Positions 5,409 to 18,879 of a stretch of DNA of 20,000 bases are shown here, one piece after another; position 1 is the stretch's first letter, and each line of letters starts with the position of its first letter. This DNA comes from Anaerolineae bacterium. GTDB taxonomy: Bacteria; Chloroflexota; Anaerolineae; B4-G1; DUEL01. The notes under the pieces are model-generated. The model saw only the letters and a list, made by a program, of their open reading frames with translations. It searched no databases and had not been told where the DNA came from. The stretch is from positions 55,300 to 75,299 of the forward strand of contig JBDOIF010000171.1 in the NCBI GenBank assembly GCA_041082215.1, in the 5' to 3' direction. The translations under genes were made by a program, and so were the position numbers.

Positions 5409-5483
5409 TACGGAATACGCAATACGAAATAGTGCAAGCTGCGTATTGCGTATTCCGTATTCCGTACTCCGTATTCCTTATTC
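5409..5483. repeat. Heptamer tandem repeat (CGTATTC x6) combined with an 18-bp inverted repeat
   Basis: Units CGTATTG, CGTATTC, CGTATTC, CGTACTC, CGTATTC, CTTATTC at 5442-5483. TACGGAATACGCAATACG (5409-5426) is the exact reverse complement of 5442-5459. Confidence 0.85.
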
Positions 5484-5492
5484 CGTGCCGTA

Positions 5493-6014
5493 TCATGCAG
5501 CGCCCAGGATCACCTGCTCCCGCCCATCGAAGGTGAGGTTGGCCTCGGCGCAGATGCTCAGCACCTGTCGGACCGCCTCTGCCAGTCCTTCGCCAGCGGG
5601 GATCGAGGTCTCCAGATTGTCCAGCGCGGTCGAAAGCCGCTCAGCATACTCCAGGAGCTTGGTGTCGAAGTCGTACAGTCGGTCCAGCTCCTCCTCCCGC
5701 ACGCGCACGGCGTCGAAGAGGCCGGCATAGCCGTAGGCGGCCTTCCGCACCCGGTCAATGAAGGTCTGAAGCTTCGTCGCCGCATTCCCCATCTCATCCA
5801 GGTACTCGAACCGGCCGGCGGTGATCAACTGCCTCTGCAGGTCATCCATCCGCTGGCGCTGGGCCTCCATCTGCGTCGCCACCGTCTCGCGCAGGAGTTT
5901 GTCCGACTCCCGCCGCATTTCCTTGTCCTTGTAGCCCTTGTAGCCGGGGATCTTTCCCAGCAACTTTTCCAGCTCGGTTCGGGCCTCGCTCACGCGCTCA
6001 TACAGGTCGCCCAT
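5493..6014 (-). CDS. Conserved-looking hypothetical all-alpha-helical protein (about 173 aa)
   Basis: ATG at 6014 is preceded by an AAGGAGAAG RBS and is preferred over the GTG at 6032. Sequence IPGYKGYKDKEMRRESDKLLR...GYAGLFDAVRVREEELDRLYDFD; helical/coiled-coil composition; host-like codon usage. Confidence 0.8.
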   Translation of the reverse strand: MGDLYERVSEARTELEKLLGKIPGYKGYKDKEMRRESDKLLRETVATQMEAQRQRMDDLQRQLITAGRFEYLDEMGNAATKLQTFIDRVRKAAYGYAGLFDAVRVREEELDRLYDFDTKLLEYAERLSTALDNLETSIPAGEGLAEAVRQVLSICAEANLTFDGREQVILGAA

Positions 6015-6034
6015 CACTCTTCTCCTTTCCACGT

Positions 6035-6069
6035 GACGTTTGACGTTTCACGTTTGACATTTCACGTTC
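6035..6069. repeat. Heptamer tandem repeat (SACGTTT x5)
   Basis: GACGTTT GACGTTT CACGTTT GACATTT CACGTTC in the intergenic spacer. Confidence 0.8.
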
Positions 6070-6614: not shown

Positions 6615-7013
6615 TCAGGAAGCCTCACCCCTCATCCTGTCGCGGACAAACTCACGAACCTGTTGTGCCAGCGCCAGCGCTTCCCGAGTTTCCTGAAGAG
6701 ATGGAAGATAGAATTCTTCTCCGTACCGAACATTCACAGCGTAATCGGTCAGCCGTTCAACCCCGGCATCAACCAGGCTTTGGAAATCCGGGTCATGCCT
6801 TCGGCAGCGGGAGAGCAGAAGCGCCAGGTTATGAGTTCTGGGGATTTCTTCGCCCCTGAAAAGCAGATAGGCTTTCAGGTATTTCTCTACACATTGCTGA
6901 AGATGGAAGCAAACAGCATCGGTAGCTGGCTCCTCCGTCGCCATCTCGTCACGGGCGATCTTGAGGTCGCTTTCTGCCTTCCGAATCCAGCTTCGAACGC
7001 CCTCCTCGCTCAT
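6615..7013 (-). CDS. HEPN domain protein (COG2250-type; putative toxin of an MNT-HEPN pair)
   Basis: WIRKAESDL, AVCFHLQQCVEKYLKAYL, PRTHNL and YAVNVRY motifs. Overlaps the upstream MNT gene by 4 bp (ATGA). Confidence 0.88.
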   Translation of the reverse strand: MSEEGVRSWIRKAESDLKIARDEMATEEPATDAVCFHLQQCVEKYLKAYLLFRGEEIPRTHNLALLLSRCRRHDPDFQSLVDAGVERLTDYAVNVRYGEEFYLPSLQETREALALAQQVREFVRDRMRGEAS

Positions 7014-7342
7014 ACTTCTATCCCTTCTTTCAACACATAGTAGGTCAGATAGGCAGGATTGTCTTCCCTCTCGCGCACCATCCTTTCACTTTGAATCACT
7101 ATATCGCAATCCATATCCTCTTGGGCGAGGGCCCACCGAATGCGCGAAGCTATCTTTTGCCGCTCGGGGAAGGAAAGGTCCCTATCAACGACTACATAAA
7201 AATCCCAATCGCTATCTTGGCGGAAGTCACCCCGCGCCCGACTGCCGAAGAGCAAAACTTTCAGAACCCGAAAGCCGCTTCTCCGCCCTTCAGCATCTAT
7301 GATTTGCCTGATTCGTTTCAGCTCCTGCATCCTGCTGACCAT
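7010..7342 (-). CDS. Minimal nucleotidyltransferase (MNT; putative antitoxin)
   Basis: LLFGSRARGDFRQDSDWD matches GSX10DXD, third Asp in DCDIV, C-terminal LKEGIEV. Start is 7342 or 7330. Confidence 0.9.
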   Translation of the reverse strand: MVSRMQELKRIRQIIDAEGRRSGFRVLKVLLFGSRARGDFRQDSDWDFYVVVDRDLSFPERQKIASRIRWALAQEDMDCDIVIQSERMVREREDNPAYLTYYVLKEGIEV

Positions 7343-10574: not shown

Positions 10575-13500
10575 ATGGTAGGAGATGAGACTGCCGGCCA
10601 GGATCTCCTTCGGTACCTGCCTTCCGGCTGGGAAGCGGGGGTTTCGCTTCCACTCCCGCCAGCCGCTGCCGCCCAGGTCCGGGACCATCTGGCGACCCTT
10701 CTCCATACGGTGGCCACCTATCTCCCCCGCTGTGTGGTGGAGCCGATCCTCCTGGCGCCGCCCAGGGAGCCGGTCCACGGGCTGTTCCGCTGGGGGACGG
10801 TCCTCTTTGCCGATGTCTCCGGCTTCACTGCCCTCTCCGAACAGATGCGGCGCTCGCGCCTGGGGAGGGAGGGGGCAGAGGCGATCACCGACGTCGTCAA
10901 CCGGTACTTCGGGGTGATGACCGGCATCGCGCAGCGGCATGGGGGCGACTTGCTGAAGTTCGGCGGCGATGCCATCCTGCTCCTGTTTGAGGGGGAGGGG
11001 CATGCGTGGAGGGGATGCCTGGCTGCTGCAGAGATGCAGACGGCGATGTCCACCGACCTTTCGGAGGCAGGCATTGCCGAAACCCCGATCTCCCTCCGCC
11101 TGGCGATCGGGCTGGGCACAGGCCCCCTCTTCACCGCTAGCCTGGGCACCGCTGAGAGCCTGGAGTTTGCCGTCCTGGGGCCAGCCCTGGAACGGATGGG
11201 CCGGGCCGAGAGCATGGCCGCCGGAGGACAGATCGTGCTCGACGAGGCCACCCTCCAGGCCGCTGGAAGGCTCCCCGTCACCCCCGCCGACCAGGCAGGG
11301 TACTTCCGCCTGGAGACGGCGAAGCTGGCCCACGACTTCTGCCTCGATCCGGCCTCCGCGCCGGACATCCCCCTCCCTCCCGGGGATGCCCACACCCAGA
11401 TCGCCTGGCTCGTCGCCCGGCTCGACGCCCTTACCCCTTATCTCCCCCCCGGCCTGTTGCGCCGCCTGCAGGCAGACCCCGCCCAGCCGCGCGCGCTGGA
11501 CGAGACCCGCTGGGTGACGGTCCTCTTTGCCGACATCCCGGGGGTGAACGCGCTGGTGGAGTCGCTCCGCGACCGTCCTCCCGACGAGTTGACCGCCCTG
11601 CTCAACGGCTATTTCACTGCGATGCGGGACTGCGTCGAGTGCTATGAGGGAGTTGTCAACAAACTGGGCGTCAGCCCGGTTGGGCTGCATATCATGGCCC
11701 TCTTCGGCGCGCCGCTTGCCCACGAAGACGACCCCGAGCGGGCGGTGCTGGCGGCGCTGAATATGCGGGCTGCGCTGGAACAGGCCGGCTTCCGGGTGGG
11801 GGAGGGAGCGGCATCCGGCCACGGCATCGGCGTCAATACCGGCTTCGTCTTCGCCGGGAATGTGGGGATGGCCGGCCGCCGTGAGTACACCGTGATGGGG
11901 GACGAGGTTAACCTGGCCTTCCGTCTGATGACCGCTGCTTCCCCCGGAGAGGTGCTGATCAGCCGGACAACCGCTCACTATGTGGAGGAACGGGTGCAAC
12001 TGATGGCCTGCCCTCCCATCCATGTCAAGGGCAAGGCTGACCCAGTGGCCCATTACCGCGCCCTCGCACTCCAGACAGGCCTGGAAGCGGGTCTGGGCCG
12101 CCGCTGGGAGGGGCCGCTGGTGGACCGGGAGGAGGCGATGGCCCGGATTCGCCAGGCGCTGGATGCGGTGGGGAACGGAGAGGGCCGGGTGGTCGTGGTG
12201 CGCGGCGAGGCCGGCATCGGCAAGTCCCGCCTGGTCGGCGAGGGGATGGAACTGGCCCGCCAGCGGGGTTTCCTCATCCTGGCAGCGACCAGCCTCTCCT
12301 ACGGGCGGGATACCCCTTACCTGCCGTGGGCCGAACTGCTGCGGGCACTGCTGGAGATTCGAGAAGGGGAGCCGCCGGATGAGCAGATAAGGCGGGTCCG
12401 GGCCGGGCTGGAGCGGCTGGGAGCCGAAGAATGGGCCCCGGTGCTCGGCGAGGTGCTCGGCCTCCCCGTAGAGGATACCCCCCTCACGGCTGCCCTCACC
12501 CCCCATCTGCGCCAGCAACGATTGTTCGACCTGACCCTGGCGCTGATCCGCCACCGGGCCACGCCTTCAGGATTGATGCTGGCGATGGAGGACATCCAGT
12601 GGGCAGACCCCGCCTCGCTGGACCTCCTGGACTATCTGGCCCGCAACCTGCGGGATATGCCGCTGGCCCTCTTTATTGTCCATCGCCCCGACGAACGGCT
12701 GGAGGGCCGGTGGCAGCAACTGAAACACTGTGTGGATGTTCTCCTGGAAGAATTGCCCCCTCCGGCCGTACAGGAAATGGTCGCCCACCTGTTGCAGGGG
12801 CTGGAAGTGCCGGAATCCCTCTACCAGATGGTCTGTGAGAAAGCTCAGGGAAACCCCCTGTTTGTCGAAGAGATCGTCCGCTCCCTGAAGGAGAGCGGCG
12901 CGCTGCGGTGGGACGACGGTCACTGGCTGATGGACACGCGGCTGAGCGCCACCCAGATCCCCGACACGGTCCACGGCCTGCTTCAGAGCCGCATTGACCG
13001 CCTGGTCGAAACCGACCGGCGGGTGCTTCAGGTAGCGGCCTGCATCGGGCAGACCTTTCCGGTGCAGACGCTGGCAGGAGTCTATCCCTATGGCGACCTG
13101 GGGAGCTCCCTCCCTCAGCGCCTGGAGCGGCTGACCGCTCTGGAGCTGACCGCTGTGGAGCCTTCCGCTTCCATCCCCACCTATGCCTTCCGCCACACCC
13201 TTATCCGGGAGGTAGCCTACGAGAGCCTGGCCTACGGTCGGCGACGGGAACTGCACCGGCACATTGGCGAACTCATCGAGCGGGAACGGGCAGAGACGCT
13301 TCCCCAGTGGTACAACTTGCTGGCCTACCACTTCTATCAGGGACAGGTCTGGGATAAGGCAGCCGACTACGGGCTGAAGGCCGGGGAGCTGGCCCGGCGT
13401 GAGTATGCCAACGAGGTGGCCCTGGCCCAGTTCCAGCGGGTCCTGGAGGCGGTAGAGGAAGGAAGGCAAACCAGCCTGGAGTTGACGGAGGTCCGCCTGC

Positions 13501-14753
13501 AGGCTCACGAAGCGCTGGGGGATGTGATGGCGGTGATCGGGGAGTACGATCAGGCGCTGGAGCATTACGAAGCAGCGAGGAAGCTGGTGGAGGATAGCCC
13601 GCCCGGCGAAGAGCGGTCCCGTCACCTGGCCGACCTGTGCCGCAGGACAGCCGAGGTATATGAGAGGAAGAGCGAATACGACACTGCTCTCCGGTGGCTT
13701 CAGCAGGGACTGGAGGAGCTGGGCCAGTGGGAGCCATTGGAGGCAGCCCGTATCTACCGCCTGGGGGCCGGGATCTACCATCGGCTGGGCCAGAACGACC
13801 AGGCCATCGCCTGGTGTCGGCGCAGCATGGAGATCGCCCGCGCCAGTCAGGATCCCCAGAGGGAGCACACCCTTGCCCATCTCTACTTCCTGATGGCGGA
13901 GATCTACCGCCGGTATGGGGACCTGAATGAGGCGGTGAAGTACGCCCACCAGAGCCTGGAGGCGTACCGGTCGCTGGAGGACCTCCTGGGGGCCTCCCAG
14001 GCCTACAACACCCTGGGAAATGTCTATTTCGAGGTGGGGGATTGGAGCAAGGCGGCCCGCTTCTACCGCCTGGGGATGGAGATCAAGGAGCGGGTCGGCG
14101 ATGTGTATGGACAGGCAGTGATCGCCAACAACCTGGGGGAGGTCCTGCTTTACCAGGGCGACCTGGAGGCAGCCCAGCAGGTCTACGAACGGAGTATGGG
14201 GATATGGGAGCGGCTGGGGGTGACGTTTGGGATCGCGGTGCTCCACAACAACCTGGCCGTGGTCCATATCCGGAGTCAGGAATGGGAGGATGCCCAGGAG
14301 CATCTCCGGCGCAGTCTGGAGCTTTTCAGGGAGATCGGCGTTGAGGACTGGCTGCCGGAGGTCTACCGGCATCTGGCGGAGGTGGCGGTGGGACAGGGCC
14401 GGCTGGACGACGCGCTGGCTTACGCCGCCGCCGCCCTGGACCTGGCCCGCCAGCACAAGATGCAGCTTGAGGAAGGGATCGCTGCCCGGATCGTGGGGCT
14501 GGTTTACCACCGGCTGGGACAGGACGAATGGGCCTTGCGGGAGCTCCAGAGCAGCCTGGAGATGCTGGAGGGACTGGATTCCCCCTACGAGGTGGCCCGT
14601 ACCCACCTTGCGCTGGCCCGGCTGTATGCCGACCGCAGGGAGAAGGATGCAGCACAGACACACCGCTCCCAGGCCATAGAGACCTTTCGGCATCTGGGGG
14701 CCAGGCTGGACCTGGAAGAGGCGCTGATGCTTGAGGTCCAGGACGGCGGATAA
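10575..14753 (+). CDS. Soluble adenylyl cyclase (sAC)-like protein: two class III cyclase domains + STAND/AAA ATPase + C-terminal TPR array
   Basis: C1: VLFADVSGFT...LKFGGDAIL. C2: VLFADIPG...VNK...ALFGAPLAHEDDPERA...REYTVMGDEVNLAFRLM. Walker A GEAGIGKS (12204-12227), Walker B LAMEDIQWAD, GNPLFVEE, RIDRL and YAFRH. Multiple TPRs (AYNTLGNVYFEVGDW, IANNLGEVLLYQGDL, LHNNLAVVH). No TM helices. Confidence 0.93.
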   Translation: MVGDETAGQDLLRYLPSGWEAGVSLPLPPAAAAQVRDHLATLLHTVATYLPRCVVEPILLAPPREPVHGLFRWGTVLFADVSGFTALSEQMRRSRLGREGAEAITDVVNRYFGVMTGIAQRHGGDLLKFGGDAILLLFEGEGHAWRGCLAAAEMQTAMSTDLSEAGIAETPISLRLAIGLGTGPLFTASLGTAESLEFAVLGPALERMGRAESMAAGGQIVLDEATLQAAGRLPVTPADQAGYFRLETAKLAHDFCLDPASAPDIPLPPGDAHTQIAWLVARLDALTPYLPPGLLRRLQADPAQPRALDETRWVTVLFADIPGVNALVESLRDRPPDELTALLNGYFTAMRDCVECYEGVVNKLGVSPVGLHIMALFGAPLAHEDDPERAVLAALNMRAALEQAGFRVGEGAASGHGIGVNTGFVFAGNVGMAGRREYTVMGDEVNLAFRLMTAASPGEVLISRTTAHYVEERVQLMACPPIHVKGKADPVAHYRALALQTGLEAGLGRRWEGPLVDREEAMARIRQALDAVGNGEGRVVVVRGEAGIGKSRLVGEGMELARQRGFLILAATSLSYGRDTPYLPWAELLRALLEIREGEPPDEQIRRVRAGLERLGAEEWAPVLGEVLGLPVEDTPLTAALTPHLRQQRLFDLTLALIRHRATPSGLMLAMEDIQWADPASLDLLDYLARNLRDMPLALFIVHRPDERLEGRWQQLKHCVDVLLEELPPPAVQEMVAHLLQGLEVPESLYQMVCEKAQGNPLFVEEIVRSLKESGALRWDDGHWLMDTRLSATQIPDTVHGLLQSRIDRLVETDRRVLQVAACIGQTFPVQTLAGVYPYGDLGSSLPQRLERLTALELTAVEPSASIPTYAFRHTLIREVAYESLAYGRRRELHRHIGELIERERAETLPQWYNLLAYHFYQGQVWDKAADYGLKAGELARREYANEVALAQFQRVLEAVEEGRQTSLELTEVRLQAHEALGDVMAVIGEYDQALEHYEAARKLVEDSPPGEERSRHLADLCRRTAEVYERKSEYDTALRWLQQGLEELGQWEPLEAARIYRLGAGIYHRLGQNDQAIAWCRRSMEIARASQDPQREHTLAHLYFLMAEIYRRYGDLNEAVKYAHQSLEAYRSLEDLLGASQAYNTLGNVYFEVGDWSKAARFYRLGMEIKERVGDVYGQAVIANNLGEVLLYQGDLEAAQQVYERSMGIWERLGVTFGIAVLHNNLAVVHIRSQEWEDAQEHLRRSLELFREIGVEDWLPEVYRHLAEVAVGQGRLDDALAYAAAALDLARQHKMQLEEGIAARIVGLVYHRLGQDEWALRELQSSLEMLEGLDSPYEVARTHLALARLYADRREKDAAQTHRSQAIETFRHLGARLDLEEALMLEVQDGG

Positions 14754-14766
14754 AAGGAGGAAAAGA

Positions 14767-17700
14767 ATGGGGAGGCACCGGTTGCTGAAGGGGATTGCGA
14801 TTGTTGGGCTGAGCGGGTTGATGCTGGCGCTGGTGGGGGCCGGGCTATCTACAGCCGATATGCCCCCTTCCTCCGCCGGTCGGGCAGATGCGGCGCCCTC
14901 CGTCACGGGCGCGGCCTCCGCCCAGACAACGGCCACGCTCCCGGTCGCCGCGGCTGCCTACGAGGGTAGCCCGGGCGGATGGTATGAACAGGCCGTCCCC
15001 TTTGTCGCCTACTCCGCCGATGGCCTGGAGACCAACCTCCACGTCCAGAGCCTCTCCGGCTACACTATCACTGCCTACCTGTACGTCTCCGCCGGTGGCC
15101 TCTCCACTACGGTCACCCGTACCATCCCGCCCAACGGGACCACCATCTGGAATATGAAGGAGCTGACTCCCATCCTTGGAGCCTCCTTCTCCGGCTCCGC
15201 CATCCTCGATTCCGGGCCCGATCCTGTGGCTGCCGTGGTGCGGATCACAGACCACAGCGGTGACACGGAGGGGCTGATGGCCTATACGGTCCCCGGAGCT
15301 GCTCAAAATGAGGTCGTTCTCCCGGCGCTCTACAGGAACTACGGGGGGTGGTGCTCCACGGTGGTCGTCCAGAACACGGATCGCTTCAGCTCTGCCAGAG
15401 CGAACATCTACCTCTTCGCCGCAGATGGCTCAGTTGCCTATGACGATAGCCCGGAGCTCGCCCCTATGGCCATTTACACGCTGAACCTCTGCCAGACCGG
15501 CTCGATCCCCTCCGGGTTCCACGGCTGGGCCTCCATCAGCTCCGATCATCCCACCGCCGCTGTGGTCATCAACAAGAATCCGACCACGGGCGGGGCCTTC
15601 GCCCTCACCGGCCAGTATAGAGAGAACCTCTCCACCTACGGCGTCCTCCCCTGGGCCTCCTGCCGGGGGTCGGCTGAGCCGCTGAATACGGAGTTCACCC
15701 TGTACCATGCAGGGATCGATGCCTTCACAGTGACAGTGGCTTACCACAATCAGACGAGCGGTTCGCTTGATGCGCTGGAGGAGCGGACCCTCGTGCCAGG
15801 GGGCAACGTCACCCACAGCCTGGCCGCCTACGAACCGCTCCCGGGGGGGTGGCAGGGGACCATCGTCTATAGCGGCACAGACTTACTGACAGCTTACGCC
15901 CTCAACGAGGACGGCCAGACATCGGCTGGCTACGGCGGCTTTCCCTGGCCAGAGTTCCGGGTCCATCTCCCCTACTTCATCTACTCCCCTGGCGAACGGA
16001 CTGACCTGCGGGTCTGGAACAGCGCCGATTTCTCCAACACTGCCTACATCTACCTCTTCGACCTCGCCGGCAACCTGGCCCACGAGTTCGAGATCGAAGT
16101 CCCTCCCTACGCTTCCTATATCCTGGATCCCAGCAAGCTTCTGGAAGGGTACTTCTTTGGCTCCGCCGTCGTCACGGCTGGCAACAACTTCTTTGAGACG
16201 GTCGTAGCCGACCTGGTCTTCAGCACCCCGTCCGGTGATACCTACGAGCCGAATGACATCTGGGAGATGGCCTACCCCATCCAGGCAGGGCAGCCATACT
16301 GGTCCTACATCAGTCACGAAGACGATCTGGACTGGTACCGGATCGAGATCACCGCTCCGGCAATGCTGACGGTGACGCTGGACAACCTTCCTGCCGATTA
16401 CGACCTGGTCCTCTTCGGCGATCTGGGCCAGCCGCTGGGGCCGGACAACCAGGTGCTGGGCGAGCTGGGGGACAACTCCGATATAGACGCCGCTGGCCGC
16501 ATCAGCTCCATCGGCCGTATCAGCTCCATCGGCCGCATCAGCTCCATCGGCCGTATCAGCTCCATCGGCCGTATCAGCTCCATCTCCGCCAACCCCAACA
16601 CAATGTCGGAGCAGGTGTCCACGATGGCCCTGGAGCCGGGCTGGCACTACATTCTGGTCCTGGGCGACAACGGAGTCCACGACCCGACCCGCTCCTACCG
16701 GCTCCAGGCCGAAGTCGTCCCCCTGACAGGGGGCAGTTGTTCGTGGACCCCCACTTACCCGATGGGTGAACCGATCGCCACCTATGTTGGCACCCCCACA
16801 GGCACCTTTCCCTACAGCGAACCCCTGACCCTGATCCTGCTCAACAAGCAACGGCTGGACGCCACCTACGGGATTACGGAGACGAACGCCCTGGTGAACG
16901 ATCTGCGGGCTCTGGCCGACCACCCACTGGTGCGGGGAATTGTGGTCCCGGTGGAAAACGACGATGTCATCTCCGACACCTACACCACATGGAATACAGA
17001 GTACTGTTCCCCTGGCTATGCCAACGAGGTCGCCAGGCAGATAAGGGAGCGGATCGTCCTCCCCTATTTCCAGGGTTACCCCTCCCTGCAATACGTGGTG
17101 CTGGTGGGAAGCGACGAGCAGCTCCCCCTCTACCGCATTCCTGACGAGACGCGCATCGCCAATGAGCGCACCTACGAAAGCAGCGCGTACCTGGACGCCG
17201 GTGCGGCCCGGGCAGCCCTGGCACTGGGCTACTACCTTACCGACGACATCTACGGCGACCCGACGCCGCTGGCGTGGCGCAACCGGTGGCTGGTGGTGCA
17301 GCGGCACCCGGTGGGCCGGCTGGTGGAGACACCGACGGAGGTAAGGGCAATGATCGGCTCCTTCCTCCAATCCGGTGGCGTGCTCACCGCCACCCGGGCC
17401 GTCGCTACTGGCTACGATTTCCTTTCCGATAGCGCCGCCGCCATCGGAGCCAGGCTGAGCGACCACGGCCTTGCTGTCACTTCCCTGATCAGCGAGACCT
17501 GGGACGCCGATGATCTGGAGTCGGCCTGGACCCAGGCCGTGCCGCCCAACGAGATCGCCTCCATCAACGCTCACTTCTCCCACTACGAGGCCTACCCGGC
17601 CCTCACCACTTCGGTTCCCTTATCCAACGCCGCTGTCGTCAATGCCCTCTTCACAGGCACGCTGGGCTTCTCGATGGGCTGCCATGCCGGGCTGAACCTG

Positions 17701-18879
17701 GCCGACGCGGAGGTGCAGCCAGCCCACCCGGAGACGATCCCGGACTTCCCCCAGGCTATGGCACAGCGGGCCTCCGCCTGGGTGGGCAACACCGGCTACG
17801 GCTACGGGGTGGACGATTCCATCGCCCTCTCCGAGCGACTGATGTACTTCTTCTCCCAGGAGCTGGGCCGCAGCGCCTACATGCCCATCGGGCAAGCATT
17901 GCGCAACGCCAAGCTCCGCTATCTGGGTACACTGCCCAGCGGCGGCCTCAGCCTTTACCACGAAAAAGCGCTGATGGAGGCTGCCCTCTACGGCCTGCCG
18001 ATGCTGCGGGTCCACCTCCCCACCCCTCAGCCTCCCTGGCATGAAGGGATCTCCAGCACGGTCGAGGGGCCGGCCCCCGTGGGCATTGGGGGCCTGCAGG
18101 TGATCACCGCCACGGTCCACCCCACCCTCACCCGTCATATCGCAGGCGGTATGACGGGCCAGGCCCTGGGGCAGGGAGGCGGCGTCTACTACAGCGTGGG
18201 CGGCGAGGCGCAGGCCAGCCCCGGCCAGCCGGTCCAGCCGCTGGCGACCCTCCTCATCTCCCCTCCGGCTACGGCCGACTACGTCGCCCATGGCACTCTC
18301 TTCCTGAGCGGCCACTACACTTATGACACCGACTTCGACCCCCTCATCTCCCGGCCAGTGACCGATGTCACCCTGCCGGAGCCGGAGTTCACCTTTACCG
18401 GCTGGTTCCCGGATAAGCCCTTCTTCGTAAATCGGTTCGGTGGGCACGACCGGCTGGTGCTCATCCCTGGCCAGTACAACGCCGGGCTTGGCCTGGAGCG
18501 GCTGTACGACGAGCTTCAGCTCCTGGTCTTCTATTCCACCAGCGACGATTTCCTTCCACCCACCATCTGGGAGACGGATGCAACCCGGTTTGTGGGCAGG
18601 GTCAACTTCCGGGCGCGGGCATCGGATACCTCCGGCATCTACCGTATGCTGGTCACCTACAGCACCGGCGGTGGCTACTGGCAGAGTATGGACCTGGCCT
18701 ATAACGAGGGGAACAAGCTCTGGGAAGGCTCGCTAGACAGGGTTGAAGATGCCCTCCACTTCTTTGTCCAGGCAGTGGACAGGGCAGGGAACGTGACGAT
18801 GAGCGCCAACAAAGGGATGCTGCTGGAAGCGAAAGGGTGGGCGCTCTACCTGCCACTGGTAACCCGGAACGGGCGATAG
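14767..18879 (+). CDS. Large secreted protein: signal peptide, four beta-sandwich-like repeats, PPC domain with (GRISSI)5 insert, peptidase C25 (gingipain)-like domain, C-terminal YLPLVxR motif
   Basis: ATG 14767 follows AAGGAGG. Signal peptide MGRHRLLKGIAIVGLSGLMLALVGAG. PPC pattern DTYEPND...DLDWYRI...LPADYDLVLF...GWHYILV. C25-like segments YVVLVGSDEQLP, TDDIYGD, VGRLV, SINAHF, SMGCHAG, WVGNTGYGY, IGQALRNAK and LYGLP. Confidence 0.8.
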   Translation: MGRHRLLKGIAIVGLSGLMLALVGAGLSTADMPPSSAGRADAAPSVTGAASAQTTATLPVAAAAYEGSPGGWYEQAVPFVAYSADGLETNLHVQSLSGYTITAYLYVSAGGLSTTVTRTIPPNGTTIWNMKELTPILGASFSGSAILDSGPDPVAAVVRITDHSGDTEGLMAYTVPGAAQNEVVLPALYRNYGGWCSTVVVQNTDRFSSARANIYLFAADGSVAYDDSPELAPMAIYTLNLCQTGSIPSGFHGWASISSDHPTAAVVINKNPTTGGAFALTGQYRENLSTYGVLPWASCRGSAEPLNTEFTLYHAGIDAFTVTVAYHNQTSGSLDALEERTLVPGGNVTHSLAAYEPLPGGWQGTIVYSGTDLLTAYALNEDGQTSAGYGGFPWPEFRVHLPYFIYSPGERTDLRVWNSADFSNTAYIYLFDLAGNLAHEFEIEVPPYASYILDPSKLLEGYFFGSAVVTAGNNFFETVVADLVFSTPSGDTYEPNDIWEMAYPIQAGQPYWSYISHEDDLDWYRIEITAPAMLTVTLDNLPADYDLVLFGDLGQPLGPDNQVLGELGDNSDIDAAGRISSIGRISSIGRISSIGRISSIGRISSISANPNTMSEQVSTMALEPGWHYILVLGDNGVHDPTRSYRLQAEVVPLTGGSCSWTPTYPMGEPIATYVGTPTGTFPYSEPLTLILLNKQRLDATYGITETNALVNDLRALADHPLVRGIVVPVENDDVISDTYTTWNTEYCSPGYANEVARQIRERIVLPYFQGYPSLQYVVLVGSDEQLPLYRIPDETRIANERTYESSAYLDAGAARAALALGYYLTDDIYGDPTPLAWRNRWLVVQRHPVGRLVETPTEVRAMIGSFLQSGGVLTATRAVATGYDFLSDSAAAIGARLSDHGLAVTSLISETWDADDLESAWTQAVPPNEIASINAHFSHYEAYPALTTSVPLSNAAVVNALFTGTLGFSMGCHAGLNLADAEVQPAHPETIPDFPQAMAQRASAWVGNTGYGYGVDDSIALSERLMYFFSQELGRSAYMPIGQALRNAKLRYLGTLPSGGLSLYHEKALMEAALYGLPMLRVHLPTPQPPWHEGISSTVEGPAPVGIGGLQVITATVHPTLTRHIAGGMTGQALGQGGGVYYSVGGEAQASPGQPVQPLATLLISPPATADYVAHGTLFLSGHYTYDTDFDPLISRPVTDVTLPEPEFTFTGWFPDKPFFVNRFGGHDRLVLIPGQYNAGLGLERLYDELQLLVFYSTSDDFLPPTIWETDATRFVGRVNFRARASDTSGIYRMLVTYSTGGGYWQSMDLAYNEGNKLWEGSLDRVEDALHFFVQAVDRAGNVTMSANKGMLLEAKGWALYLPLVTRNGR
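16495..16584 (+). repeat. Five tandem 18-bp coding repeats GGCCG(C/T)ATCAGCTCCATC encoding (GRISSI)5
   Basis: Units start at 16495, 16513, 16531, 16549 and 16567 and differ only at the synonymous third base of the Arg codon (C,T,C,T,T). Confidence 0.95.

Follow-up and report, generated by a model that had tools for sequence, protein, structure and literature searches.

In the RRNPP systems (Rap/Phr, NprR/NprX, PlcR/PapR, PrgX, Rgg/SHP and AimR/AimP), a cytoplasmic TPR receptor is encoded beside the gene of a secreted precursor and reads a peptide of 5-8 residues, which differs between strains or species and matches its receptor, and the oligopeptide permease is encoded elsewhere (10.1101/2024.03.06.583649). 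Bacterial STAND-TPR-cyclase proteins, common in Actinomycetota, Chloroflexota and other phyla of complex lifestyle, have unknown ligands, as is the case for Rv0386 of Mycobacterium tuberculosis, in which TPRs and a MalT-type STAND ATPase come after a class III cyclase; a preprint on mycobacterial LuxR-type proteins states the role of its TPRs to be unknown and mentions RRNPP receptors only as an analogy (10.1101/2024.03.06.583649). Here we describe a two-gene locus in a stretch of 20,000 nucleotides (nt) from an Anaerolineae bacterium (contig JBDOIF010000171.1, positions 55,300 to 75,299; the whole stretch is called the window), in which a gene of this cyclase-STAND-TPR architecture precedes the gene of a predicted exported protein that has a gingipain fold and carries five identical copies of the hexapeptide GRISSI. 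We tentatively interpret the pair as a precursor with multiple copies of a peptide signal, which is fused to its protease and sensed by the cytoplasmic STAND-TPR cyclase, a view that we consider to fall a little short of probable. Full-text literature searches, with subscription journals outside their reach, returned no description of such arrays or of the pairing. The locus comprises the following elements, positions being those of the window:

10575-14753, plus strand: gene 1, a cytoplasmic tandem-cyclase/STAND NTPase/TPR protein of 1392 amino acids (aa), from translation and Pfam.
14754-14766, plus strand: spacer of 13 nt between the two genes, holding the ribosome-binding site AAGGAGG of gene 2, read from the sequence.
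14767-18879, plus strand: gene 2, a multi-domain C25-like protein of 1370 aa, predicted to be exported, from translation.
16495-16584, plus strand: the (GRISSI)x5 array, residues 577-606 of the gene 2 protein, five exact hexapeptides in a loop of its PPC domain.

The stop codon TAA of gene 1 (14751-14753) is followed by AAGGAGGAAAAGA and then by the ATG of gene 2 at 14767, and translation, Pfam and the sequence itself bear out the arrangement given in the initial annotation of this DNA, a cyclase-cyclase-STAND-TPR gene ending 13 nt before a second gene that has a ribosome-binding site of its own.

The association of the two genes is conserved in other genomes. Among 41 related genomes searched, 16, the source genome included, hold a homologue of gene 2, and in all ten relatives whose loci were fetched the protease homologue is immediately preceded, on the same strand, by a STAND gene that ranks first or near the top among the matches to gene 1; the full tandem-cyclase-STAND-TPR frame is present in eight of them, the upstream frame of G037 comprising the STAND and TPR parts only and that of G026 being split, on a contig that ends inside the array. 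A pattern scan with one genome per species gave 79 loci from other genomes, distributed over Anaerolineae, Thermoflexia, Ardenticatenaceae, Promineifilaceae, Herpetosiphonaceae, Caldilineales, a few Actinomycetota and one Zixibacteria metagenome-assembled genome (MAG). It counted 550 relatives among 600 stretches, which points to several hundred gene pairs. A full cyclase-cyclase-STAND-TPR frame lies at most 500 nt from the protease homologue in 41 of the 79 loci, 28 times upstream on the same strand, six times downstream on the same strand, five times downstream on the opposite strand and twice overlapping. The remaining 38 loci divide into six with a partial frame, 12 with one short flank in which no such gene was found, 13 that could not be assessed and seven exceptions, which have no such gene within 500 nt in spite of flanks of at least 4 kb on both sides; six of these seven have a STAND-TPR or cyclase frame within 4 kb, usually separated from the protease by one large surface-protein gene (beta-helix or SdrD-like), and L112 is the sole exception with neither a STAND nor a cyclase gene within that distance. 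Large surface-protein genes inserted between the STAND and C25-like genes on the same strand were seen at L069, L077, L080, L083 and L095; their products have 637-1294 aa and show a right-handed beta-helix, DUF11, SdrD-B/SpaA or no match. In a sample of the class Actinomycetes, 19 of 301 genomes hold a gene 2 homologue, and among 18 other loci fetched from this class a cyclase-STAND-TPR frame was found within 500 nt in 12 (often divergent) and within 3 kb in three, the last three having none within about 7 kb. As the gene 1 query matches only 1-25 times per genome, chance adjacency would be of the order of 1%. Gene order and orientation have thus changed repeatedly in the family without separation of the pair. 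The reservation that the pairing could be incidental does not hold in view of 41 of 79 loci and 12 of 18 actinomycete loci paired within 500 nt, and the adjacency across Chloroflexota that had been proposed as a check is indeed found, extending into Actinomycetota and occurring in several orientations; it demonstrates a functional linkage of the two genes, not the direction of this linkage.

The perfect array noticed initially in the second protein is exact and far beyond chance, since a perfect array occurs at the equivalent place in orthologues from other genomes. Tandem Repeats Finder assigns it a period of 18, 5.0 copies and 95% matches, and the five DNA copies of the unit differ solely by the Arg codon, CGC or CGT. 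Elsewhere in the genome GRISSI was met just as six isolated chance matches in six-frame translation. In an AlphaFold2 model the array is inserted into one of the loops of the PPC sandwich, with the last unit running into a strand; it has a predicted local distance difference test score (pLDDT) of 37-54 and no regular secondary structure, model residues 80-106 lying below 50, and in a second model, of an orthologue with 15 units, the whole array scores 22-40, again without regular secondary structure. Such low-confidence coil, as modelled, fits an exposed substrate loop, a low pLDDT being in itself no proof of disorder. In independent hot-spring metagenome runs, every contig with the locus (identity of at least 99%) is interrupted within the array, at 16524-16555, and the breaking of contigs within these 90 nt accounts for several database homologues that start or end there (P0003, P0005 and G026). 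One run labelled metatranscriptomic is made up of small contigs and carries a flag as probable DNA. A recent slippage artefact or an assembly error was rejected as the source of the array because orthologous arrays with scrambled codons exist in independent assemblies. The sole other hexapeptide array of the genome, EGTAHT x4 and GTAHTE x3.7, belongs to a 1252-aa protein without Pfam match at C7:116673-120431 (plus strand; locus L123:2677-6435), with no adjoining STAND gene within the 8 kb fetched.

Across the family the position of the array is retained and its content is not. Of the 79 homologues, 66 have three or more perfect copies in tandem at the equivalent position of the PPC loop, and 68 loci contain 55 distinct units, so that the variation of the repeat unit between loci, likewise suggested as a check, is amply seen; each relative examined has a perfect array of a different unit at this place, among them GRMQAI x5, ARWGAV x6, IGTWEA x5, RGWWAT x6, IGGWEA x15, SIGGWE x7, AGWSSI x7, IGRLSN x3+5 and GVIRSI x3, with a median of five copies per array and a range of 3-15. 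Brought into a common register, the units follow the consensus [GA]-x-[WLMI]-x-[SAN]-[IVT], in which positions 1 and 6 have the lowest entropy (0.90 and 1.65) and positions 2 and 4 the highest (2.48 and 2.57). Trp occupies position 3 in 12 of the 31 distinct units of the paired set, several times followed by Glu or Asp. Cleavage after each Arg, which the initial annotation had assumed in the manner of Arg-gingipains, is rejected as a general rule, 23 of these 31 units having neither Arg nor Lys, and both the register and the count of the four identical ISSIGR peptides predicted from it are thereby arbitrary. More distant homologues carry pentapeptide arrays of the form [PAG]-[LFVIW]-x-x-[IVST], such as PLRSV, PFRSS, PLRGS and YSPSI; many of these proteins have more than one array, of which one again lies in a PPC-like domain immediately preceding the C25 part. 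Flindersiella endophytica and Microbacterium pumilum are named as sources of pentapeptide-type homologues. A profile search of the family retrieved 2470 representative clusters at E <=1e-30, and the C25-like part is found at E <=1e-20 in 38 of 401 sampled Chloroflexota genomes. Some assemblies hold two modules with different units, namely L053/L073 (GGWASI and LGRIGT), L082/L065, L085/L091 and L094/L106, with GAMTSI and ARVNAI as the units of another of these pairs; two different units per genome would be expected for parallel channels that do not cross-talk.

The diversity of the units tracks that of the TPR array of the partner. Over 38 gene pairs, the distances between units were compared with those between domains by Mantel and partial Mantel tests, which are liberal on related sequences and can overstate significance: unit and TPR distances correlate with r 0.54, and the partial correlation is 0.32 given the STAND core (p 0.0004), 0.34 given the cyclase (p 0.0002), 0.31 given the C25 domain of gene 2 (p 0.0002) and 0.30 given the C-terminal domain of gene 2 (p 0.0002), whereas the other four domains, with the TPR controlled, correlate with the unit at r 0.00-0.05 (p 0.25-0.50). 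Sixteen of the 25 strongest pairs of alignment column and unit position fall in the TPR array, which has 37% of the columns (binomial p 0.005), and several of the top TPR columns flank Asn1186 and Asn1226, both invariant in the alignment of 38 gene 1 orthologues. The anticipated covariation of unit and TPR came out in favour of the initial annotation in that unit distance follows the TPR over four other domains; the finer covariation is mixed or not significant, and the link of unit and TPR, drawn from sequence comparison, is suggestive rather than proven.

This correlation bears directly on an alternative which we hold to be unlikely, namely a regulatory coupling without peptide sensing, in which the STAND-TPR cyclase would sense another cytoplasmic cue and cyclic AMP (cAMP) would control expression or export of the protease, and in which the array would have an extracellular role of its own, for example as a tag for recognition, as an epitope in adhesion or kin recognition, or as a modification site. 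A pairing conserved in varying orientation gives functional linkage and leaves its direction free, six proteins of the genome that bind cyclic nucleoside monophosphates (cNMP) could read the cAMP, some loci have a further large surface protein between the two genes, and the covariation of unit and TPR at the level of residues is weak. It leaves unexplained, on the other hand, why unit distance tracks the TPR of the partner over the C25 and C-terminal domains of the unit's own protein, and it offers no reason for spacer-free identical copies.

The identity of the copies is itself informative. Within an array, which was detected by requiring perfect copies, the units have the same amino acids and differ at synonymous sites, including exchanges of CGC for AGA (Arg) and of AGT for TCG (Ser), with a pooled proportion of synonymous differences (pS) between copies of 0.62, and each of the 56 arrays that are free of degenerate units at the edges encodes its unit in two or more DNA versions. 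Taking random draws from the codon usage of the gene as the expectation, the share of codons that differ is 80% or more of this value in 54 of 90 arrays and below 50% in 11; the array of the window is among these young arrays (codon difference 0.10 vs 0.54 expected), others of which occur in a clade with recently changed units (L062 and L082). The window and L043, from an Ardenticatena MAG, share GRISSI in all copies, with scrambled codons and differing flanks and with only 55% identity over the surrounding 876 residues, and GGWASI and AGWSSI are each kept in three genomes; close relatives, conversely, can differ at one to four of the six unit positions, in all copies simultaneously. The copies are under strong selection for an identical peptide sequence, a feature that the initial annotation had not foreseen and that is compatible with a released peptide, and the pattern suggests that upon a change of unit a variant is re-amplified, after which its copies drift at silent sites. 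Judged by its codons, the array has the pattern of a polyprotein peptide precursor, of which each unit works alone, and not that of a structural repeat.

We accordingly assign a low probability to a structural array, that is, to a short beta-solenoid, stalk or spacer of five- to six-residue units that would be kept uniform by repeat turnover and remain uncleaved. The units do have hydrophobic residues at fixed spacing ([GA]-x-[WLMI]-x-[SAN]-[IVT]), the pentapeptide relatives fit the A(D/N)LXX type of pattern and two of them, P0009 and P0011, carry Pentapeptide_4, degenerate copies flank many arrays, and the window's own array is young at the DNA level. Against this, AlphaFold2 gives coil for arrays of both 5 and 15 copies (pLDDT 22-54) where the remaining protein is modelled with confidence and no regular beta-helix appears, gene 2 has no Pfam match at E <=0.01 to Hexapep (PF00132) or Pentapeptide (PF00805, PF13599), and known solenoids tolerate variation between coils, whereas the copies here remain the same although their synonymous sites approach randomness in 54 of 90 arrays, and the GRISSI unit survives a flank divergence of 45%.

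The protein in which the array is embedded is composed of the following parts:

14767-14859, plus strand: predicted signal peptide or membrane anchor at the N-terminus, a basic stretch followed by a hydrophobic one, with hydrophobic 19-residue windows starting at residues 5-12.
14899-16242, plus strand: N-terminal region of unassigned fold, in place of which homologues carry PKD, beta-propeller, beta-helix and other domains.
16243-16725, plus strand: beta-sandwich of PPC/collagen-binding type, interrupted by the repeat array (Pfam PPC below cut-off, structural match to ColH).
16813-18027, plus strand: gingipain-like catalytic domain (clan CD, C25-type), by structural match, model residues 189-593.
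17572-17574, 17581-17583 and 17680-17682, plus strand: candidate catalytic residues His936, His939 and Cys972, by invariance in alignments.
18043-18843, plus strand: C-terminal beta-sandwich domains, all-beta from model residue 599 onward.
18844-18867, plus strand: C-terminal tail LYLPLVTR, three residues before the stop, its Leu-Pro conserved in orthologues.

A hydrophobic segment lies within the first 200 residues of the open frame in 37 of 39 paired orthologues. The N-terminal approximately 450 residues of gene 2 have no match in Pfam or NCBIfam, and an Atlas search with this region retrieved only hypothetical clusters with scores of at most 0.91, DUF5719 at 0.89 being a lead. The PPC assignment (PF04151: E 0.0036, 18.6 bits vs a cut-off of 25.9, with the match split over residues 521-631) is shared by 13 of 28 orthologues that match Pfam PPC and is supported by the ColH collagen-binding domain 3jqw, which aligns to model residues 1-157 with Z 13.7 and a root-mean-square deviation (rmsd) of 1.8 A over 106 of 117 residues. 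The model, which comprises residues 495-1370 of gene 2 and was built on 28 orthologues (pLDDT 86, predicted template modelling score 0.89), matches RgpB with Z 32.7 and rmsd 2.6 A over 308 residues (4ief_D; Z 31.4 for 1cvr), followed by Kgp with Z 27.6, separase as the next family with Z 18 and PorU with Z 12.8; Foldseek gives the gingipain match E 1e-10 and probability 1.00, and PorU is among the Foldseek matches with E 6e-9. Model residues 599-765 resemble the Kgp prodomain 5mun (Z 12.3). Sequence identity to gingipains and PorU amounts to 11-17%, and Pfam C25 (PF01364) has no match on gene 2 at E <=0.01, but is matched by two of the 28 orthologues (best E 9.3e-13) and annotated by precomputation in several further homologues; in a sequence-profile search of the PDB with the orthologue alignment, gingipains were absent at E <=1, the sole matches being the ColH domain (E 0.37) and a low-complexity one due to chance. 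None of the 28 aligned orthologues departs from His936, His939 or Cys972, nor does any of the 8 rows of a smaller alignment, and the distance of 33 residues between His939 and Cys972 equals that between His211 and Cys244 of RgpB, a match in spacing of the candidate dyad. According to the model, the catalytic domain thus has a C25/gingipain fold, whereby the clan-CD protease domain of the initial annotation is recovered by structure (RgpB Z 32.7) and not by Pfam. In all, 70 homologues of gene 2 were found at E <=0.001.

In the C-terminal tail, L868 and P869 (alignment numbering) are conserved to at least 90% among C25-like orthologues. A tail of the form [VIL]-Y-L-P-[LVI]-[VI]-x-[RK], at a distance of 2-8 residues from the stop, closes 21 of the 61 open frames in which the genome has the motif, for example on C11, C26, C29, C66, C123, C134 and C160, most of the proteins being large (400-1537 aa), and its sequence resembles a signal for sorting or processing, of a kind that has not been described.

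PorU and plant asparaginyl endopeptidases act as transpeptidases, and a further possibility is that the locus makes a peptide natural product, the clan-CD domain working as a transpeptidase which yields head-to-tail cyclic penta- or hexapeptides or attaches them to the envelope, with the STAND cyclase as the regulator of the pathway and an antibiotic, metal-binding or surface function of the product. A spacer-free multi-core array with a fused protease does resemble multi-core precursors of peptides made by the ribosome and modified after translation (RiPPs) such as cyanobactins, orbitides and the fungal Kex2-processed repeats, PorU is found among the fold matches, and the best NCBIfam matches of gene 1, all far under their cut-offs, are to RiPP-associated STAND/TPR proteins, namely TOMM kinase/cyclase (279.6 bits vs 705.75) and HaaT. 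We nevertheless regard a natural product as quite improbable, no modifying enzyme or exporter being conserved nearby and a correlation of unit and TPR being expected of a ligand-receptor pair and not of an antibiotic regulator, unless the product is also the inducer.

The putative receptor encoded by gene 1 has four domains:

10788-11339, plus strand: cyclase homology domain 1, with metal-binding D80 and D132 and with K128 kept, its Asn/Arg positions degenerate.
11508-12047, plus strand: cyclase homology domain 2, with the metal Asp lost and K363, T439, N446 and R450 kept; best Pfam stretch residues 312-491.
12117-12668, plus strand: STAND NTPase core (AAA_16), P-loop GEAGIGKS, Pfam E 2e-26.
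13392-14750, plus strand: C-terminal TPR array of TPR_12/TPR_10 type, the proposed peptide sensor (Pfam TPR_12, TPR_MalT).

Pfam finds Guanylate_cyc in two stretches (E 8e-31; for the class III cyclase family, PF00211, 107.5 bits vs a cut-off of 21.9, likewise in two stretches), AAA_16 at residues 515-698 (2e-26) and, at roughly residues 945-1390, TPR_12 (2.3e-43, six stretches), TPR_MalT (1.9e-19) and other TPR families. No transmembrane-type segment is present, as judged by the absence of a 19-residue window with a Kyte-Doolittle mean of at least 1.6, and no helix-turn-helix (HTH) domain was found in Pfam or NCBIfam. With its P-loop core followed by a C-terminal repeat sensor the protein is by architecture a STAND NTPase of MalT/AfsR-like type, and the P-loop GxxGxGK[ST] (G544, G547, G549, K550 and S/T551) is intact in 38 of 38 orthologues.

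Class III cyclases depend on a metal-binding Asp pair, a substrate Lys and an Asn/Arg pair, and residue counts over the 38 aligned orthologues indicate how this set is distributed. Domain 1 has D80 and D132 in 37 of 37 ungapped rows each and K128 in 28 of 38, and its positions aligned to the Asn and Arg are variable; in domain 2 the position of D320 is not conserved (N 15, D 8, S 7), and K363 is found in 31, T/S439 in 33, N446 in 38 and R450 in 38 of the 38. Judged from the alignment, the residue set is complete only across both domains, a split that is kept in the 38 orthologues, and since the two domains carry complementary sets, one composite active site per polypeptide is indicated, for which ATP is probably the substrate. 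The complementary halves resemble the C1/C2 pseudo-heterodimer of mammalian adenylyl cyclases. Paralogues of gene 1 elsewhere in the genomes of relatives match only from the second cyclase domain onward, so that the tandem-cyclase form may mark the paired subfamily. On contig C101 a paralogue (locus L122:2662-6558, plus strand) has a double zinc ribbon, a cyclase, an AAA_16 (STAND) core and an SBP_bac_5 domain in 1298 aa; this SBP_bac_5 sensor, in place of a long TPR, lends independent circumstantial support to the idea of cytoplasmic peptide reading by cyclase-STAND proteins in this organism.

That the TPRs of several STAND molecules instead bind the uncleaved and unexported array, nucleate an oligomer and report export load is very improbable, for although the copy number (median five, range 3-15) lies within the size range of STAND oligomers, the correlation of unit and TPR would fit as well as with a free peptide and the importer, of which none is linked, would not be needed, the array lies about 580 residues behind the export signal, inside a domain that folds extracellularly, and neither spacer-free identity nor a fused protease would be required.

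For the preferred reading, a peptide signal whose precursor carries its own protease, the following course can be envisaged. The gene 2 protein would be exported, its PPC loop serving as a polyprotein-like precursor with five (elsewhere 3-15) identical spacer-free peptide copies, and the array would be processed extracellularly to hexapeptides, for which the gingipain-like domain of the protein itself is the simplest candidate. The cut would fall at the conserved unit boundary, between I/V/T of position 6 and G/A of position 1, which, if the C25-like domain is the enzyme, is a likelier site as the Arg rule fails; the variable inner positions, 2 and 4 foremost, would carry specificity. The peptide would then be taken up, for which 12 family-5, oligopeptide-type binding proteins (SBP_bac_5) encoded in the genome could serve; these, like the six cNMP-binding proteins, score above cut-off, and none is encoded in the window. 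Inside the cell the peptide would bind to the TPR array of gene 1 on its concave face; this binding would set free the NTPase switch, in the manner of other STAND proteins, and the composite cyclase site would be turned on, the extracellular concentration of the peptide being translated into cAMP. Of the core idea of the initial annotation, a secreted precursor of short peptides read by the TPRs of the cyclase, what finds support in this way is the conserved pairing, the diversity of units and their correlation with the TPR; Arg-specific cleavage had to be given up as a general rule, and the ISSIGR register and the count of four peptides are arbitrary.

A number of observations weigh against this reading, in addition to the caveats attached above to the Mantel tests and to low pLDDT. 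At the level of alignment columns, the TPR is more informative than the other domains at unit position 4 only (p 0.0012), no significant excess being seen at positions 1-3 (p about 1), 5 and 6, and the ratio of TPR to core divergence does not differ significantly between pairs with the same and with different units, neither among close pairs (1.47 vs 1.60, p 0.18) nor in 17 chosen independent pairs (1.33 vs 1.41, p 0.14). The residues at the unit boundary vary, with I/V/T/L/S before G/A/R, so that a single protease specificity is not obvious, and the C25 domain could instead serve the YLPLVxR tails, on which it might act, given that PorU, likewise of this peptidase family, is sortase-like. In the pentapeptide relatives the unit recurs in long degenerate five-residue repeats, with Pfam Pentapeptide_4 (PF13599) in P0009 and P0011, and such regions fit a folded beta-helix better than a cleaved precursor; degenerate units are also present at the edges of 35 of 91 arrays, and the lack of amino acid differences between copies is partly built in by the detection of arrays as perfect repeats. 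No third gene, an importer included, is linked in a conserved manner, the next gene cluster being present in 9 of the 79 loci, and the module therefore consists of two genes.

If the peptide-signal reading is true, the locus would extend peptide signalling by cytoplasmic receptors to two further phyla, coupled to cAMP and not to a transcription factor. It would also mean that the design of eukaryotic pheromone and neuropeptide precursors, identical copies with scrambled codons, has been fused to the processing enzyme. As the peptide is written in several copies in the adjoining gene, a concrete and testable candidate ligand becomes available for a large STAND subfamily, and genomes would allow a direct reading of the specificity code (55 units in 68 loci). 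In a wider extrapolation, which we put forward as possible and rather doubtful, Chloroflexota and Actinomycetota would share a widespread peptide 'language', with thousands of secreted self-cutting clan-CD proteases that carry spacer-free arrays of lineage-specific penta- or hexapeptide pheromones, the imported peptides being read by dedicated NLR-like STAND-TPR proteins into cAMP, possibly with cyclic peptides from transpeptidation, and with new pherotypes arising by re-amplification of a mutant unit and the TPR following. Bacterial cyclase-STAND-TPR proteins would on this extrapolation gain their first class of ligands, and peptide quorum sensing with a second-messenger output would for the first time be known beyond Firmicutes-type systems. 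Even if signalling fails, two things call for an explanation, namely the extreme selection that keeps short peptides identical in a loop for which the model gives low confidence and no regular structure, and the near-obligatory pairing with a STAND cyclase.

The other genes of the window look unrelated to the pair; they encode a tRNA synthetase of isoleucyl/valyl type, a lipid A-type acyltransferase, an SPFH protein, a HEPN/nucleotidyltransferase pair, a DUF2207 protein, a GT2 glycosyltransferase and a PfkB kinase. The HEPN (132 aa) and nucleotidyltransferase (110 aa) genes at 6615-7342 (minus strand) overlap at stop and start in the usual form of HEPN/MNT toxin-antitoxin pairs. Arrays of 7-base repeats at 5409-5486 and 6034-6068 (TACGAAA x3.3, CGTATTC x6.4 and TGACGTT x5) frame an open frame at 5493-6032 (minus strand) of 179 aa without Pfam match.

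Compared with known systems, each part of the module has a counterpart, and the combination differs from all of them. The TPR array is of the same TPR_12/TPR_10 type as that of kinesin light chain, which has the conserved Asn ladder as well and binds short Trp-containing (W-acidic) peptides; as a eukaryotic cargo adaptor without evolutionary or functional link to gene 1, kinesin light chain is merely a precedent for this type of TPR. Rv0386 has one cyclase domain and a C-terminal LuxR HTH, in contrast to the two complementary cyclase domains with one site of gene 1, and to our knowledge no peptide-array partner gene has been described for it. The gingipains RgpB and Kgp together with PorU (C25, clan CD) share with gene 2 the catalytic fold, a multi-domain composition and, by prediction, export, and the conserved His and Cys of gene 2 are candidates for their dyad; unlike them, gene 2 has the PPC-array module and a YLPLVxR tail, and an Arg/Lys specificity of its protease is unlikely, since most units have no basic residues. 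Polyprotein precursors such as yeast alpha-factor MF-alpha-1, the fungal Kex2-processed repeats, those of FMRFamide type and polyubiquitin likewise consist of tandem identical units with synonymous DNA differences, each unit being freed as a separate active molecule; they are eukaryotic, with spacers or dibasic sites and separate processing enzymes, whereas the units here abut inside a folded domain of the presumed processing enzyme. Unlike the RRNPP receptors, finally, gene 1 is a STAND NTPase with a tandem cyclase output and without HTH or phosphatase domain, its predicted precursor is not a small propeptide but a multi-copy loop of a 1370-aa protease, the role of the peptide being a prediction, and the hosts are Chloroflexota and Actinomycetota. 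With the HTH or phosphatase-type output and the small propeptide of the RRNPP family lacking, the module is not a member of it; by analogy, it may nevertheless work like these systems.

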